From Pseudomonadota bacterium (GTDB lineage Bacteria > Bdellovibrionota > Bdellovibrionia > Bdellovibrionales > Bdellovibrionaceae), in assembly GCA_041178425.1 (NCBI GenBank), contig JBEGVH010000013.1, forward strand, positions 1 through 64,000: DNA of 64,000 bases. The letters run 5' to 3'. Below are positions 6,914 to 60,346 of this stretch, in pieces. Made by a program: the position numbers and the translations under genes. Under the pieces are notes generated by a model that saw nothing but the letters and a program-made list of their open reading frames with translations, searched no databases and was not told where the DNA came from. The first letter of the stretch is position 1. Each line of letters opens with the position of its first letter.

Positions 6914-7987
6914 CTAAGACTCAATGGTTTCTTTTTTCTTTAACTGCAATTGTATTTGTTCTGGCGAAACGCGAACTTCATCACCCTTTTTATCAATTGG
7001 TTCTTCGATAACAAGTATGTCTCCGCGATGAAGTTCCACGGGAGTATGAGATTTTTTTATGAAAGTTAAAAACTCGCGATGGGGTCCTCGGCAAATAAGC
7101 TGTCTCGACTTCCCCTTCTCATTGAGAAAATCTCCTACCACTCGGATTAATGACTTTGCAGGAGCTATTTGATTTTCGTTCCCTTTTTTTCTGAGAGCGA
7201 GGTAACTTAGTGTGAGCGTGGAGTTGGAGAATGGTAGATAATCTTCAATTTCAATCATCCACCCAGGACGATTAAAAAATAATCTATCATGGCACCAATC
7301 TCTTTTAGATTCTCTGAGGAGTGGGCAATCTTCTTGATGGGTGCAAGGGGCTACCACTTCAAAGTTTCTTTGTAGGGCAGCCTCTCTCAATTCTAAAAGT
7401 CGTCTCCCATCGTCTCTTGTCGATGGTTCAATGATGATCATTTTGTCCGCTGTCCAAATCCATTGGGGAAGCTGAGCTAATTCGGTGAGTGAATAAGACA
7501 TGACATTAAGGGTTTGCGGCGCCAAGGTGCGGGGAGTTTGGGTTAGCCAATGAGGAGAGGGCATCGTCTTATTGGCGAGCATTCGTTGAGTTAAGGTTTC
7601 TCTGGGAAACAGGCCTTTTTCAGACAACTGACAACTGAGGATTGAGTTATGCGTATTGATTGAATGATGGAAAGCTTCGAGACTGGGACCTAATCCAACT
7701 CCGAACTCATTCCAATGTAAAGGTTGGGTGAAAAATTGAAGCCGATGGAGTTCTTCAAAAACCCTTAAGTTTCTGATAAAGTTCAAAGGGAAATAGTAAG
7801 CCAATTGAGCCTGCTGACACCAAAGCTCATTCCAAGGCGTAGATCCCTCAGGTTGTTCAATGTAAAAATCAGCCATTTTTTTAATAGACTGAGCGAGAAT
7901 CTTTGGTTGATTAATTGATGTTCCGATTCGGTTTAGTTGTTCTTCAATCCATTCAACAAGGTTTGTGGGGAGTGAGTAGCTTTTCAT
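6914..7987 (-). CDS. Rsm22/METTL17-like SAM-dependent methyltransferase-fold protein
   Basis: AYYFPLN, EFGVGLGP (SAM motif I-like), SYSLTEL, IIEP and APCTHQEDCPL...DWCH motifs. Confidence 0.8.
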   Translation of the reverse strand: MKSYSLPTNLVEWIEEQLNRIGTSINQPKILAQSIKKMADFYIEQPEGSTPWNELWCQQAQLAYYFPLNFIRNLRVFEELHRLQFFTQPLHWNEFGVGLGPSLEAFHHSINTHNSILSCQLSEKGLFPRETLTQRMLANKTMPSPHWLTQTPRTLAPQTLNVMSYSLTELAQLPQWIWTADKMIIIEPSTRDDGRRLLELREAALQRNFEVVAPCTHQEDCPLLRESKRDWCHDRLFFNRPGWMIEIEDYLPFSNSTLTLSYLALRKKGNENQIAPAKSLIRVVGDFLNEKGKSRQLICRGPHREFLTFIKKSHTPVELHRGDILVIEEPIDKKGDEVRVSPEQIQLQLKKKETIES

Positions 7988-55022: not shown

Positions 55023-55053
55023 AAAAAGGAGCCCCAGCGGGCTCCTTTTTTTT
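55023..55053. terminator. Bidirectional terminator between dgcB and pdo
   Basis: AAAAAGGAGCCC-CAGC-GGGCTCCTTTTT hairpin. Confidence 0.9.
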
Positions 55054-55068
55054 AGCAAAGACGAACGA

Positions 55069-55929
55069 TTATCGTATTGGAATCTTAAGATAGCGAGCCC
55101 CATTTTTTTCTTCATCTGGGAGGCTGCCTGCATTGATATTTACTTGCACCGACTGAAGAAGTAAGCGTGGCGCGGCCAGGTTTTTATCGCGTTGGTTTCT
55201 CGCGGTAACATACTCTTCTTTCGAGGTACTTTCTTTCAATTGAATATTATTTTTCTTTTCAGCGCCAATCGTTGACTGACATTCAACCTGAGTTCTGCCC
55301 TGAGGATAATCATGACCTACAAACACTCGAGTGTTATCTGGTAGTTCGTAAAGTCGTCCGTGAATAGAGTCATAGAGATCTTTAGCGCTTCCGGCTGGAA
55401 AATCGCAGCGACCCGTTCCTACATCAGGCATGAATAAAGCATCGCCGGTAAAAAGAGCATCTTTGATGAGGTAACTTGCACATGCAGGAGTGTGCCCTGG
55501 GGTGAAAATAGTTTTCACATTAATTGTTCCTGCCTTTATGTTGGCTCCATCCTCCAGGAGTTGATCGAATTGACTGCCATCAATTTTAAAATCTTCATGC
55601 AAATTGAAAATCCCTTTAAATAACTTTTGAACATCTCGAATTCTTGAACCTATGGCTACTTTCGCTTGAGGGTAACGCTTTTTAAGAGCTTGTGACCCGG
55701 AAAGGTGGTCGGCGTGAGCATGAGTTTCTAAAATGAAATGGACCTTTAAATGGTGGGAATCAATAAATTGACTGACCAACTCCACCGATTGGAAGGAGAC
55801 TTTCGATGCTGCGGAGTCGTAATCCATCACAGGATCAATAACGAGAGCATCTCTAGTGTCTCCATCATAAACAACGTAGGTGATGGTGAAAGTTGCCGGA
55901 TCGAAAAAGTCTTTAATCTGCAAGTTCAT
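55069..55929 (-). CDS. Persulfide dioxygenase (MBL fold, ETHE1/Blh/PDO family)
   Basis: LETHAHADHLS, TPGHTPAC, GDALF..D.GTGRCDFP, GHDY and APRLLLQSVQVNI motifs. Confidence 0.9.
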   Translation of the reverse strand: MNLQIKDFFDPATFTITYVVYDGDTRDALVIDPVMDYDSAASKVSFQSVELVSQFIDSHHLKVHFILETHAHADHLSGSQALKKRYPQAKVAIGSRIRDVQKLFKGIFNLHEDFKIDGSQFDQLLEDGANIKAGTINVKTIFTPGHTPACASYLIKDALFTGDALFMPDVGTGRCDFPAGSAKDLYDSIHGRLYELPDNTRVFVGHDYPQGRTQVECQSTIGAEKKNNIQLKESTSKEEYVTARNQRDKNLAAPRLLLQSVQVNINAGSLPDEEKNGARYLKIPIR

Positions 55930-55976
55930 AACAGCTCCTTATGATATACAGACTAAACAATTTAATCTGGTCAAAC

Positions 55977-55992
55977 TATGCTCCAAGACATA
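55977..55992 (-). promoter_or_regulatory. Putative Crp/Fnr-type operator upstream of pdo
   Basis: Minus strand TATGT-CTTGGA-GCATA; the -10-like TAGTCT lies 21 nt downstream; a matching copy is at 58581. Confidence 0.55.
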
Positions 55993-56013
55993 AAAGTTTG
56001 AAAACAAAGAACT

Positions 56014-57273
56014 CTAGAGGCGACCTTTCAGCATCCCCCACCAGTACATGATAGGAAGTAAGTACCTTTTTAAAACCCAAAAACTAAAGCGCTCTTTGGT
56101 TGCGTCTATGGGAAAACTAGGAAGTAATTTTCCATCGTAGCCAAATTCAGCAAGAATAACGGTGCTACGACTTGTCACGAGAGGGCAAGAAGAGTAGCCA
56201 TCGTACTTCCGTTGTGGCCGTCGTCCGTTTATTACATCGGTTAAATTTTCGATGAGCAGAGGCGCTTGCTTTCTGATGGCGGCTCCCGTTTTGGCATTAG
56301 GAATACCTGTGACATCGCCTATTCCAAATACGTTTGGGTAGTTAGGAGATTGCAGGGTGTACTGATCAACCTGTAACCATCCTTTTTGAGGTCCTTCAGC
56401 CCACGCGAGAGGGCTGTTTGAAACAAAATCAGGAGCACTATTTGGTGGAACTACATGAAGTAAATCGTACTTAATTTCGGTGCGTTCTCCGAGATGCGGA
56501 TCCACAGGCTGAGGAGTAGGGGCGCAACCGGGAGCGACTGGTGCTGGAGGTGGAGCGACTTTTTCAAAAATAGCTATCTTCTCAGTGGCCCTGACCTCTA
56601 CAAGCTTTTGTAAGAAGTGGGTTTTTATATGTCGTTGCTCAACCACTTTATCAAGGCTTTTTGCAAAAGCAGGTATTCCAAAAATCGTCGGCCCATTAGC
56701 GTAATAGTGGACTTCGCACTTATCCCTAATACCCTCGAGCCTAAAGATTTCTTCGGTGAGGTACATAATCTTTTGTGGTGCGCCAGCACATTTGATCGGC
56801 ATAGGAGGTATTGTAAACAGAGCCGCGCCCCCGTTGAACGAATGGATTTGCTGAAAAGTTTTCTCTGCTTGTTCATAATCATAAATTGAGCAAAGGCCAT
56901 TTTTTCCAAGGTTTCCAACAACGCCTTTAATTTTTTCGAAATCAACTTTTAGGCCAGGAGAGAGAATTAGATAGTCATAGCTAATAATTTGATTATTTGA
57001 AATCTTCACGCCATTTTGATCAGGTAAAAGTTCGATGACTCTATCCTTCAGCAAGGTGACTCCGCTGGGGATAACGTCGACCATTGGTTTTTTAGTGGTC
57101 TCTTTGGGAACAAGTCCTGCTCCAACAAGGGTCCACAATGGTTGATAAAAGTGAAAGTCAGCGGGTTCAATCAAGGCTACTCGGTCGTTAGGAAACCGTT
57201 TGCGTAGGCGAGCCGCAACACTAATTCCCCCTGTGCCTCCGCCAACAATTAAAAACCTGTAACGATCTGACAT
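56014..57273 (-). CDS. sqr: Sulfide:quinone oxidoreductase (type II-like)
   Basis: GGGTGG, YQPLWTLVGAG, KCAGAPQK (Cys), YDLLHVVPP, KTGAAIRKQ and YDGYSSCPL (Cys) motifs. Confidence 0.92.
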   Translation of the reverse strand: MSDRYRFLIVGGGTGGISVAARLRKRFPNDRVALIEPADFHFYQPLWTLVGAGLVPKETTKKPMVDVIPSGVTLLKDRVIELLPDQNGVKISNNQIISYDYLILSPGLKVDFEKIKGVVGNLGKNGLCSIYDYEQAEKTFQQIHSFNGGAALFTIPPMPIKCAGAPQKIMYLTEEIFRLEGIRDKCEVHYYANGPTIFGIPAFAKSLDKVVEQRHIKTHFLQKLVEVRATEKIAIFEKVAPPPAPVAPGCAPTPQPVDPHLGERTEIKYDLLHVVPPNSAPDFVSNSPLAWAEGPQKGWLQVDQYTLQSPNYPNVFGIGDVTGIPNAKTGAAIRKQAPLLIENLTDVINGRRPQRKYDGYSSCPLVTSRSTVILAEFGYDGKLLPSFPIDATKERFSFWVLKRYLLPIMYWWGMLKGRL

Positions 57274-57299
57274 GCAAACACTCCTTGTTTAGCCTGAGA

Positions 57300-57737
57300 C
57301 TACTTTGTAAATGGTAACCTATTTTGAACCTTTCTGTACAGAGCCATTCCCACCAGCATGGCACCAAGAAAAATAAAAGGATTTAAAGAAAAGTTTGCTA
57401 CTGAGGTTAAGGCTGGTCCCGGGCAATATCCTCCCAGACCCCATCCTATCCCAAAAATAGACGCTCCGATGATGAGAGAAGAGGTGATGTCACTTCGATT
57501 GGGAACTTGAAAAGAATCTGTAAAAAGGGGAGCACTAAACTTTGGTTTGATGAAAAAATAATAACTCGAATGAACGGCGATTGCCCCTATCATAACGAGG
57601 ATGAGGCTCGGATCCCAGTTGTAAAACAAATTGAGAAATCCAATCACTTTTTGAGGTTGAAGCATACCTGAAATGCTAAGACCAACAGAGAAAAGTAATC
57701 CGACAAAATAGGATACGATAATATTTTTTATCTTCAT
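57300..57737 (-). CDS. YeeE/YedE-family sulfur transporter subunit (PmpB-like)
   Basis: GL.ISGM.QP.KV.GFL...WDPSL and FGIGWGLGGYCPGPAL motifs. Confidence 0.9.
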   Translation of the reverse strand: MKIKNIIVSYFVGLLFSVGLSISGMLQPQKVIGFLNLFYNWDPSLILVMIGAIAVHSSYYFFIKPKFSAPLFTDSFQVPNRSDITSSLIIGASIFGIGWGLGGYCPGPALTSVANFSLNPFIFLGAMLVGMALYRKVQNRLPFTK

Positions 57738-57750
57738 GTCTTTCCTAACT

Positions 57751-58179
57751 TTACCTTGTTAACCATTGTTTTAATGTGACGGTGAAAACTCCTGCACTAA
57801 TAAACACAATGGTGGCTACAATAGAGCGTTTTGATAGTCGGCTAATTCCACAGACTCCATGACCACTCGTGCAGCCGTTACCCATGATGGTGCCAAACCC
57901 AACTAGCAAGCCTGCAACTGCAATAATCAAGGTGCTATTGCCCGATTTATCGTTAAAGCTTTCTGGATTTGCAATTTTCATCAAAAGTCCACCCGTGAGG
58001 AGTCCAAAGATAAAGAAAATTCTCCATGCCCAGTCTCCAGGGACTATTTTGAAGGCTCCGTTAATAATACCACTGATGCCTGCAATTCTGCCGTTAAAGT
58101 GCATCATAATTACCGTTGCAAGTCCTATGATTACACCACCAATAAGAGCATTAACTAATTCGTTATTCATGGCGATCAT
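57751..58179 (-). CDS. YeeE/YedE-family sulfur transporter subunit (PmpA-like)
   Basis: GG..IG, GRIAGISGI and GLLVGFGT..GNGCTSGHGVCGISRLS.RS motifs. Confidence 0.92.
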   Translation of the reverse strand: MIAMNNELVNALIGGVIIGLATVIMMHFNGRIAGISGIINGAFKIVPGDWAWRIFFIFGLLTGGLLMKIANPESFNDKSGNSTLIIAVAGLLVGFGTIMGNGCTSGHGVCGISRLSKRSIVATIVFISAGVFTVTLKQWLTR

Positions 58180-58532
58180 CTCGAAACCGGCAAACTGAAA
58201 TCATTCCAGCGAATCATGCCTCCGGTCATATTAAAGGCACTTTTGAAGCCTAATTCTCTTGCCACAATAGTGGCATTTCCCGAGCGGGCCCCACTTCTGC
58301 AGATAAAAATGATTGTTTCATTTTTATCTGAATGAGTATTTAAAAACTCTTCAAGATCTGGCCCGAGTGTTATAAGTCGCGCGCCTTCGATGTGACCAAG
58401 CTCGCCATTAAATTCATCGGGTCTACGAACATCAATGAGCTTAAGATTCGTGGCATGTTTTTGAACTTCGGCCACGTCAATTTCAGGAATGCCATTGCGT
58501 ACAAATGTGTTTAGGGAAAGTCCTGTAGTCAT
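58176..58532 (-). CDS. Single-domain rhodanese (sulfurtransferase)
   Basis: IDVR.PDEF.G.LGHI.GA, active loop CRSGARS and GGM..W motifs. Confidence 0.92.
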   Translation of the reverse strand: MTTGLSLNTFVRNGIPEIDVAEVQKHATNLKLIDVRRPDEFNGELGHIEGARLITLGPDLEEFLNTHSDKNETIIFICRSGARSGNATIVARELGFKSAFNMTGGMIRWNDFSLPVSR

Positions 58533-58580
58533 TAATCACTCCTTGTCACTTTAGATTTATCGAAAAATAGAATTATTAAC

Positions 58581-58596
58581 CATGCTCTGAAACATA
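58581..58596 (-). promoter_or_regulatory. Putative Crp/Fnr-type operator upstream of the rhodanese-yeeE-yeeE-sqr unit
   Basis: Minus strand TATGT-TTCAGA-GCATG; within 1 nt of the same distance to the start codon as the pdo copy. Confidence 0.55.
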
Positions 58597-58655
58597 ATGT
58601 TTTAAAACTAATTTATTAACAATAAAATATTGAATTTATTGAGATTTTTACTGTT

Positions 58656-59297
58656 TTACGATTCTTGAGCGAAGGAGATCAGGCCACTTCGATTAGAGAT
58701 ATGTATGTCTCGACCGTCCTGCGTGATGAGGCCCTTGTTTTCAAGTTCGGCAAGCCCACGAATGATTGTTGGGCCGGTGCTAGCGCAGAAATGAGCAATT
58801 TCATTGCGGGTCCAGCGATGGTTCGGATGAATCTCTTTTAAATACAAAATTGAACTGGCGAGTCTTTTAAGGACTTCTTGATCGGCGATTTTGAGACGCT
58901 GGTTTTCTGCAAGCCCCAATTCTTTGGCAAGAGTTTCGATAACAAGGCGAGCGGCCTCAGGAAATTGGACTAAGACTTGTTCTACTACGCGAAGTGGGAC
59001 CAAGCCTATTTCGCTCTCTTCGAGGCACACTGACCTAGCATAATAAGTTTCCCTTGCGAATAAGGTGCGGTGACCAAAAAAGTTATTTTCAGCAAAAACA
59101 CGAAGCATGTGCTCACTTCCCTTAGAGCTCGTTGAGACGAGACTGACCAGACCCTTTTTTACAATATAAATGCCGAGTGGGCTTTCGCCCTCTGAGTAAA
59201 TAACGGAACCTTTTTTATATTGGCGATAGTGGGTATTATTGCTTATGAGCGAGATTGCTTGTTCTGGTAGTTCTTGCCAAAAGTTACTTTGTTTCAT
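58656..59297 (-). CDS. Crp/Fnr family transcriptional regulator
   Basis: YKKG..IY.EGE...GIY.V..G.V cNMP-binding-fold start, FFG, RLA..I, and HTH TRNEIAHFCASTGPTIIRGL..L...GLI. Confidence 0.92.
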   Translation of the reverse strand: MKQSNFWQELPEQAISLISNNTHYRQYKKGSVIYSEGESPLGIYIVKKGLVSLVSTSSKGSEHMLRVFAENNFFGHRTLFARETYYARSVCLEESEIGLVPLRVVEQVLVQFPEAARLVIETLAKELGLAENQRLKIADQEVLKRLASSILYLKEIHPNHRWTRNEIAHFCASTGPTIIRGLAELENKGLITQDGRDIHISNRSGLISFAQES

Positions 59298-59308
59298 TTT
59301 TCTTGTCT

Positions 59309-60346
59309 CTATATTAATTTTTTTAATCCTTCAGCTGGATTGGGATGTGACTCCAACGTCTTAATTTTGTTTATGAATAAAATCAAATCACCATTCACTG
59401 AATCCAGTAGTCTTTGGAAGTCGCTGAGATCGGCTACATAAGTTTTGAAAAGGAGTAAACGGGCATTGTTTAAAGTTATTTTTTCAAAAGAAGAATAAGA
59501 ATCTGTTTTTAAAATTGGCCGAACGAGCATTCTAAATCGATTTTTTATCTCAACAAATTGGTTTTCCCTTAAACTGAGATCCTTTTTGGGATTGCTATCA
59601 TAAAAGACACCTAGCTTTTTAATCTCGTCTGAAATGAAAGCTGAAAAGATTTTTTGGTCTTCATTTTCGTCTTTCATTTTTTGTAGATGAATAGACTCGG
59701 TCCCTTCAGTTTCTAGGTAATAAAGTTCAGTTCCTTTATCACCAAGAAATGTGGCCAGTCGTTCATTAAAGTCTGCATTGCTTTTAATGTAGATCGTAGC
59801 ATGCACTGATTCATGAATGATAGTGTTAACCAAATCTTCGTCGGAGTACCTCATCATAGACGACAATATTGGATCGTTGAACCATCCCAGTGTGCTGTAG
59901 GCGCTCACACCTCTGACGTATGTGTCATATCCTTGTGATTGTAGCAGAGAGGCTTCTTTTTTAGCATCTTCCTCCTCAGGAAAGCCCTTGTAGGGGACAT
60001 CTCCAACTATTGGAAAATGCCAGAGGAAATGCTCAAGTTTCCATTGGTGAGATGCGTTCACTGACCACACCACATACGGCTTATTGAGTTGAACATAGGA
60101 AGCATAGTTTTTTCCAACATTGAGCAATAGCTTCTCTTGGGCAAACAATCTGGCGCTTTGGCTTAGCTCTAACTTTGCTTTGTCTTTTTCGTTGAGCTTG
60201 CCCGATGCGATCACTTGATCAATTGGCTGTCTTTGGTAGAGAATATTCATCTGATTATAGGCGTTTTTTACCAAGTAGGTAAATTGGCAGCCACTCAAGG
60301 AGGTAAGGGCGAGTGCAGTGACAAGCCAGCGAACTAAAACATCCAT
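59309..60346 (-). CDS. Predicted zinc aminopeptidase lipoprotein (DUF2265-like)
   Basis: Lipobox LSGC, W.FPIVG.VPYKG, AYSTLGWF.DP, HESVH (HExxH) and FNERLA motifs. Confidence 0.85.
   Translation of the reverse strand: MDVLVRWLVTALALTSLSGCQFTYLVKNAYNQMNILYQRQPIDQVIASGKLNEKDKAKLELSQSARLFAQEKLLLNVGKNYASYVQLNKPYVVWSVNASHQWKLEHFLWHFPIVGDVPYKGFPEEEDAKKEASLLQSQGYDTYVRGVSAYSTLGWFNDPILSSMMRYSDEDLVNTIIHESVHATIYIKSNADFNERLATFLGDKGTELYYLETEGTESIHLQKMKDENEDQKIFSAFISDEIKKLGVFYDSNPKKDLSLRENQFVEIKNRFRMLVRPILKTDSYSSFEKITLNNARLLLFKTYVADLSDFQRLLDSVNGDLILFINKIKTLESHPNPAEGLKKLI

Follow-up and report, generated by a model that had tools for sequence, protein, structure and literature searches.

Two boxes upstream of sulfur genes

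Within the 64,000-nucleotide stretch analysed here (the window; contig JBEGVH010000013.1 of a Bdellovibrionaceae genome), a Crp/Fnr-family regulator gene is followed on the minus strand by genes for a rhodanese, YeeE, YedE (DUF6691), a sulfide:quinone oxidoreductase (SQR)-like protein and a persulfide dioxygenase (PDO)-like protein. Two similar near-dyads, one before the rhodanese gene and one before pdo, raise the question of whether the regulator reads them and, if so, with what consequence and in response to what signal. On sequence evidence, the neighbouring Crp/Fnr protein is very probably the factor that binds the boxes, and it likely activates rather than represses. The fuller mechanism, in which the boxes are centred 41.5 bp upstream of the predicted starts and the bound regulator activates sulfide and persulfide detoxification genes from a class II position, is probable.

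Box 1 (58578..58599, minus strand; core TATGT-TTCAGA-GCATG at 58581-58596, centre 58588.5) lies upstream of rhodanese-yeeE-yedE-sqr, and box 2 (55974..55995, minus strand; core TATGT-CTTGGA-GCATA at 55977-55992, centre 55984.5) lies at a predicted internal promoter of pdo. Both cores have 5-N6-5 geometry, and copies of both boxes occur in congeners. As an earlier reading of this DNA (the original prediction) had described, the two 16-mers are 49 coordinates (48 intervening nt) from the rhodanese ATG and 48 coordinates (47 intervening nt) from the pdo ATG, and each is followed, exactly 21 nt past the core, by a -10-like hexamer. These hexamers, TAAATC (58554..58559, minus strand) and TAGTCT (55950..55955, minus strand), predict transcription start sites at about 58547 and 55943, respectively. 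TAAATC lacks the -7 T, and congeners carry TATAGT or TAAATT at the same gap. A scan of the window detected no sigma70 consensus promoter on the minus strand before rhodanese or pdo. The GTTTT said to precede both boxes is indeed upstream of each but was discarded as part of the motif, being found at only 2/53 ortholog sites.

Conservation of the boxes and of promoter geometry

A search for loci resembling the window locus returned only three distant ones. The regulator has matches in 87 of the 201 genomes searched within the order and, as a profile, in 100 of 301 within the phylum, the latter count including a paralog with Tyr76 that is described below. Sixty of the 107 non-self places from the order search, 5 further places and 35 from the phylum search gave, with the window, 101 loci, at 84 of which a sulfur gene is present. 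The original prediction had proposed motif discovery on orthologous upstream regions, and expectation maximization on 79 such regions from 46 ortholog loci, with the window left out, recovered a palindrome de novo. The motif, aTTATGTnCnnGnACATAAt, was found in about 70% of the 79 regions, and the consensus of the matrix built from the ortholog loci is AATTATGTGC-N2-GCACATAATT. No shared palindrome was found among five divergent loci (L171, L173, L196, L062 and L068), and a strict pattern search in five relatives gave a single match with no clear gene.

At 36 of 53 ortholog sites in 33 loci a TAnnnT hexamer follows the core, with a gap of 21 nt in 19 and of 22 nt in 17, compared to 9/53 on the far side, where some of the hexamers belong to shared divergent promoters. 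The same 21-22 nt gap was seen at 6/8 held-out sites as well as at 27/45 and 10/13 sites of two other box types (FNR-type and TATAA-type, respectively; see below). This gap places the box centre at -41.5 or -42.5, and class II activation by Crp-family proteins uses sites centred near -41.5. The class II spacing that had been suggested for the window thus appears to be common across the ortholog sites.

The separate internal box for pdo, also part of the original prediction, is kept in two congeners, G436 and G437, which have regulators 70-71% identical to that of the window, the same gene order, both boxes and TAnnnT at a gap of 21; the G436 pdo box retains even the CTTGGA spacer. Because both genomes hold both boxes in the same gene order, the internal pdo promoter is probably conserved. 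For one ortholog promoter (L203:7200-7950), RNA contigs from eight runs were inspected, bearing in mind that contigs cannot show starts. On the pdo side the contigs end at 7425, 7511, 7521, 7541, 7566 and 7607, and on the rhodanese side they start at 7608-7750, with two runs continuous; the predicted starts are at about 7519 (pdo side) and 7636 (rhodanese side). Orthologs of the regulator are encoded in complete genomes for which RNA-seq runs are public, so that the proposed role of a Crp/Fnr activator as a reactive sulfur sensor is directly testable.

The box type follows the recognition helix

The regulator (58656..59297, minus strand, 213 aa; cNMP_binding and HTH_Crp_2 domains) has the recognition helix T-G-P-T-I-I-R. 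In the numbering of PMC12531629, G175 and P176 occupy the places of CRP Arg180 and Glu181, and R180 that of Arg185; this register rests on the CRP string given in the original prediction and on an alignment with GlxR. Excerpts of the same paper list Arg180, Glu181 and Arg185 as the base contacts of CRP and report high conservation of such base-contacting residues in the Crp family (PMC12531629). The replacement of Arg-Glu by Gly-Pro, to which the altered recognition had been attributed, is present as described, but Gly-Pro proved to be a subclade variant, and a key role for it is not supported: G175 is found in 4/84 and P176 in 26/84 of the sulfur-linked regulators, position 175 across the clade being T, V, F, G, L or others and position 176 P, S, E or A. 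Judging from these sequences, what counts is that Arg and Glu are missing.

Comparison across the clade revealed three helix types with three boxes before the same genes, and a -10 gap of 21-22 nt in all. Where Glu is kept at the CRP-181 position, an FNR-type TTGAT-N4-ATCAA box is present in 25/26 loci and the ATG[TC] box in none of the 26. Non-Glu helices go with an ATG[TC]-N6-[AG]CAT box in 33 of 47 loci (shuffled mean 5.4). For the R-T-P-T helix, a TATAA-GCTAGC-TTATA box was found in 8/10 loci and the ATG[TC] box in 0/10; this subclade (L052, L058, L060, L061, L063, L067, L072, L073, L082 and L089) has its own box, aTTATAAGCTAGCTTATAAt. We met no prior report of the TATAA box in the literature, although no search was aimed at that box. 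The proposed match between helix and box therefore came out stronger than had been suggested, as box type shifts with helix type, and, assays aside, this covariation is the strongest indication that the window regulator would read the boxes. We propose that the TATG[T/C] half-site arises because the equivalents of CRP Arg180 and Glu181 have been lost. More generally, the clade supplies natural helix-swap variants for the Crp-family recognition code. Separately, we observed TATGA-N6-TCATA palindromes near Bacteroidia Crp genes with a T-T-E-T helix (L117, L124, L134 and L136), possibly a fourth half-site type.

A probable small sulfur regulon

In the proposed mechanism, a Crp/Fnr dimer would bind both palindromes and activate, from class II positions, rhodanese-yeeE-yedE-sqr and pdo as well as unlinked tauE and rhodanese-yeeE operons. 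The window regulator is the sole PF13545 match in the genome. The two best matches of the ortholog matrix in the genome, at 20.5 and 20.3 bits, are both intergenic; one (C9:73366) precedes a double rhodanese-YeeE-rhodanese operon and the other (C40:135674) precedes tauE, and neither target is linked to the window cluster. Among 127,188 promoter-like positions, 8 score at least 7 bits, and the best four by combined box and -10 score are those of tauE, pdo, the double-rhodanese operon and the window rhodanese. In most relatives tauE is within the cluster, and pdo, tauE, sqr and rhodanese are the common predicted targets of the clade. The tauE box is present in two congeners having the regulator (18.9 and 17.4 bits) and missing in two congeners where no regulator was found (7.7 and -0.8 bits). 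The third-ranked genome match, at C9:238542 (L096:4043-4064), scores 17.1 bits and has TATACT at the class II spacing; it is between two genes without sulfur annotation, ahead of one for a 207-aa membrane protein that matched no Pfam family. Three further TATGY-N6-RCATA sites (C9:226859, C30:75189 and C10:130752) were dropped, as each scored below 9 bits on the ortholog matrix.

The double-rhodanese operon is part of a second sulfur island (G000:C9:71560-76170; L094:2569-7163), where genes for a sulfite-oxidase-like molybdoenzyme and for a small protein with a CxxCH motif run divergently from it. The GC content of the island is ordinary. In 181 other genomes from the family, no match to the double rhodanese reached E 1e-40, which makes it conceivable that the operon was recently gained and captured by the regulon, and we regard this as possible. 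At C40:135674 (L095:4175-4196) the 22-bp site is perfectly palindromic and separates tauE from a divergent operon encoding a 355-aa unknown protein, a flavin mononucleotide (FMN)-binding protein and ApbE; towards that operon, no -10 was found at the class II gap.

In the congener G111 (L213:5645-8974), one of the two in which no regulator was found, a BigR-like ArsR protein with two Cys fills the slot of the Crp regulator before rhodanese-yeeE-yedE-tauE-pdo, and no box is present. Its score, 98 bits, is below the cut-off of 155.

The regulator and its candidate signal

The window protein matched PF00027 (63 bits) and PF13545 (37 bits), both over the cut-off, and its predicted structure (predicted local distance difference test score 91.6) gave CRP-family proteins as top Foldseek matches (E 4e-17). 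It thus has the fold of the Crp/Fnr superfamily, and the 22-bp dyad with a 5-N6-5 core expected of a site for this family was likewise found computationally. Scores against the NCBIfam models for CRP (49 versus a cut-off of 266) and FNR (28 versus 228) were low, and only generic Crp/YeiL clusters were returned from the ESM Atlas. The 84 sulfur-linked regulators form one clade (97-99 by the Shimodaira-Hasegawa-like approximate likelihood ratio test, SH-aLRT, in quick trees) adjoining the Tyr76 paralog. They make up an uncharacterised Bdellovibrionota Crp/Fnr clade that likely controls a small sulfur regulon, as judged from their sequences and gene context. The paralog was sampled at 13 loci, none with a sulfur gene, and 13 of the 17 non-sulfur regulators have Tyr76. 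It is widespread (L083-L087, L090-L093, L195, L202, L204 and L205) and has a T-P-E-T helix, and some of its members are longer, with a Cys-rich N-terminus and 5-6 Cys.

Across the sulfur clade, Arg66, Arg77 and Glu131 are conserved in 84/84 regulators, His76 in 83/84 and His86 in 81/84, position 86 being Tyr in the window regulator and both congeners. Aligned with GlxR, the protein has His76 and Tyr85 at the positions of the Glu and Arg that bind cAMP. By analogy with CRP, we take His76, Arg66, Arg77 and Glu131 to line the effector pocket. The original prediction had instead pointed to a possible thiol sensor with two Cys. Both residues, C91 and C171, are present as described, but the pair is not conserved: C91 occurs in 20/84 regulators, C171 in 55/84, both in 10/84 (7/30 core representatives at 50% identity) and neither in 19/84. 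At the position of C91, the cAMP sensor GlxR also has a Cys. A conserved Cys pair of the kind that forms a di- or polysulfide bridge in dithiol reactive sulfur sensors is thus absent from the clade. Given the conserved pocket residues and unconserved Cys pair, we prefer a non-covalent sulfur ligand. Tentatively, and with confidence somewhat short of even, we suggest that the signal is a small sulfur anion held in the cyclic-nucleotide-like pocket without a Cys-Cys bridge. Thiosulfate, sulfite, polysulfide or a low-molecular-weight persulfide would be candidates, the putative binding site comprising His76, Arg77, Arg66 and Glu131, together with His86 in most members (Tyr in the window protein).

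Alternative explanations

Several observations weigh against the interpretation given above. On the ortholog matrix the two boxes of the window score only 11.8 and 10.4 bits, and at a cut of 10 bits the matrix is not selective in the genome (78 positions, compared to a permuted-matrix mean of 97.6). The two intergenic regions of the window are alike at 15/19 bases, a likeness matched in 44 of 1000 dinucleotide shuffles of the window alone, and TATGT-N6-GCATR has five matches in the genome. With window-only statistics and scores this marginal, the reality of the boxes rests on conservation and position, and on that comparative evidence we take both to be real. The promoters are also uneven: the rhodanese -10 is weak, the C9 operon has its -10 at a gap of 20, and tauE has only a poor match at the gap of 21-22. 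As for the covariation of helix and box, only about two independent events account for it in a tree computed with the helix left out, and only the cross-group zeros are non-circular because each box pattern was set on its own group. The FNR pattern is moreover found in 5/10 R-T-P-T loci (shuffled mean 1.0, maximum 3) and 6/47 non-Glu loci (shuffled mean 3.5), and the strict box is missing in 14/47 non-Glu loci. Arg66, Arg77 and Glu131 are kept in the non-sulfur paralogs too, so that the sulfur clade is set apart only by His76 and a few other residues (Tyr34, Gly52 and Lys154). Finally, a clade member in G757 (L172, G757:C4:243900-257600) has three TATGTC-N4-GACATA boxes near cysD, cysN and TauE-like genes in a stretch where no pdo was found; boxes flanking cysD/cysN point to sulfur supply over detoxification.

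The operator and the activator could be as proposed and the signal be persulfidation, either of the single C171 in the helix-turn-helix (HTH) or of the C91/C171 pair. This is unlikely, even though C171, present in most of the sulfur-linked regulators, occurs in 0/13 Tyr76 paralogs, and 82/84 regulators have at least one Cys. C171 presumably occupies what is usually the buried core of the HTH, and members retaining boxes can have S, A, V or I there. For C91, the usual residue in the clade is A or V. Two of the 84 have no Cys after residue 20, and the rarity of the pair argues in the same direction. For an Acinetobacter Crp, persulfidation under sulfide has been reported in the available portion of PMC7315123, with the effect given as unknown.

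We consider it about equally unlikely that His76 and His86 ligate haem or a metal, through which sulfide or O2/NO would be sensed. Crp-family proteins such as CooA, DNR and HcpR do sense via haem or metal, the two His are nearly invariant, the sister paralog clade includes the longer members with 5-6 Cys, and the Glu clade uses the FNR-type box. However, the window protein and both congeners have Tyr in place of His86, and the boxes found precede sulfur genes only.

A slightly less probable alternative is that the protein is instead a regulator of sulfur supply, acting on thiosulfate uptake and assimilation and not on stress. The arrangement in G757 fits this, as does the description of YeeE/YedE as thiosulfate importers in the part of a review seen here (PMC13467558). 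Against it, the usual targets pdo, tauE, sqr and rhodanese are the set found under reactive sulfur sensors, and it is a BigR-like ArsR that substitutes in G111.

Repression from a box overlapping the -35 element is improbable. A site centred at -41.5 extends to -34, and BT4338 both activates and represses according to the extract of PMC6989115, but no -35 consensus was found in the window scan or in the ortholog columns, and a gap of 21-22 nt is constant over three box sequences, as contact with polymerase demands and repression does not. That the boxes arose by chance, or are bound by another factor, is very hard to credit: the window-only p of about 0.044 and modest per-site scores would allow it, but conservation, positional enrichment, helix covariation, co-occurrence with the regulator and the lone Crp gene in the genome all speak against it.

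Relation to known regulators

The original prediction had considered the operator specificity new. The core is not, because Cur/BT4338 (MalR) of Bacteroides thetaiotaomicron, also of the Crp family and not thought to sense cAMP, binds TATGT-N6-ACATA. A 22-bp motif, wwwTATGTTnTAnAACATAwww, is given for BT4338 in the excerpted text of Ravcheev 2013 (PMC3878776), and deletion of such a site at fusA2 abolished BT4338 binding according to the excerpts of Townsend 2020 (PMC6989115). Cur differs in having a global sugar regulon and an AT-rich spacer, whereas the clade described here has GC-N2-GC and, in the genome analysed, the top four promoters precede only sulfur genes. No true Cur ortholog was found by motif count in 201 Bacteroidia genomes or by profile in five, and proxies stood in for BT4338: 2GAU of P. 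gingivalis, which was the best PDB sequence match and has a helix without Arg/Glu (PMC12040651, seen in part), and the P0090 cluster, one member of which is named as a 'polysaccharide utilization system' regulator. With their T-x-S-N-A-I-R helix the proxies also lack the Arg/Glu pair, and the clade described here suggests a reason why Cur reads TATGT. The proxies are 27-29% identical to the window regulator, carry Tyr76 and a longer linker, and branch as a clade of their own (99) when the tree is unconstrained, although joining was not rejected by the approximately unbiased (AU) test (p 0.058). We infer that, once Arg and Glu had been lost, the two lineages converged on the same half-site.

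E. coli CRP and FNR share with the window regulator the fold, the 22-bp dyad and an equivalent of Arg185, and the Glu-helix members of the clade share the FNR-type box. CRP and FNR act at class II promoters with sites at -41.5. In contrast to CRP, the cAMP-binding Glu and Arg are His76 and Tyr85, and only the last of Arg180, Glu181 and Arg185 is kept. In contrast to FNR, the window regulator has no N-terminal Cys cluster for [4Fe-4S] and no Cys before residue 91. Unlike those of CRP and FNR, the proposed regulon is local and sulfur-specific.

The target set of sqr, pdo, sulfurtransferases, tauE and yeeE/yedE is that of the reactive sulfur sensors CstR, SqrR/BigR and FisR as outlined in excerpts of PMC13467558, and gene context and boxes suggest that the window regulator controls this set. 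These sensors have another fold, the window clade lacks a conserved Cys pair, and the window regulator is likely a sigma70 class II activator in contrast to sensors that are repressors or sigma54 enhancer-binding proteins. In the available sections of that 2026 review, the primary reactive sulfur sensors come from three families only (CsoR, ArsR and Fis), and most of them have a Cys pair; the corresponding sections of a 2022 review (PMC9774590) list CsoR-, ArsR- and Fis-type sensors for the same gene set and name no Crp/Fnr protein. In the open-access literature we found no description of sqr/pdo control by a Crp/Fnr protein, though RegPrecise alignments and subscription papers might contain one. 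If true, a Crp/Fnr activator that fills this role and lacks a conserved pair of Cys would be an additional class of sensor, probably with other sensing chemistry.

Crp proteins adjoin yeeE in Bacteroidia too: three were found in 20 loci, 18-22% identical to the window regulator and far from its clade in the tree. Their low identity, a pocket Cys (E-S-C) and a different helix (R-V-V-V-S-R) make it look as if the window clade was recruited to sulfur genes independently. Whether all these features combine into a Bdellovibrionota-wide clade of dedicated reactive sulfur sensors that need no cysteine, with a His76/Arg77 pocket binding a sulfur anion or persulfide, an origin independent of the Cys-bearing Bacteroidota Crp and a three-way helix-operator code (FNR-type, Cur-type and TATAA-GCTAGC-TTATA) at unchanged promoter geometry, is doubtful, though we regard it as a possibility worth stating.

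Organization of the gene cluster

The regulator gene begins 11 nt past an aminopeptidase gene (59297-59309) and has no upstream box. Given this close spacing and the missing box, the window regulator is likely transcribed by read-through and not autoregulated; many orthologous regulators, unlike this one, share a divergent box with pdo. Downstream, all on the minus strand, are the genes for a single-domain rhodanese (58176..58532, 118 aa; PF00581), a YeeE/YedE sulfur transporter half (57751..58179, 142 aa; PF04143), its YedE-type partner (57300..57737, 145 aa; DUF6691, PF20398), the SQR-like flavoprotein (56014..57273, 419 aa; PF07992) and the PDO-like protein of the metallo-beta-lactamase fold (55069..55929, 286 aa; PF00753). 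For the PDO-like protein, the match is to the dioxygenase half of Blh (E 5e-98) and falls short of the cut-off set for the whole protein. Between pdo and a convergent gene for an FHA-GGDEF protein, at 55023-55053, a GC hairpin with A/T runs on its sides resembles a bidirectional terminator, at a position where the promoter/terminator scan made no call. The best NCBIfam SQR model scored 218 bits on the flavoprotein, against a cut-off of 525, and the protein carries a Pro/Ala-rich insert with an extra Cys at about residues 245-262 (window 56500-56560).

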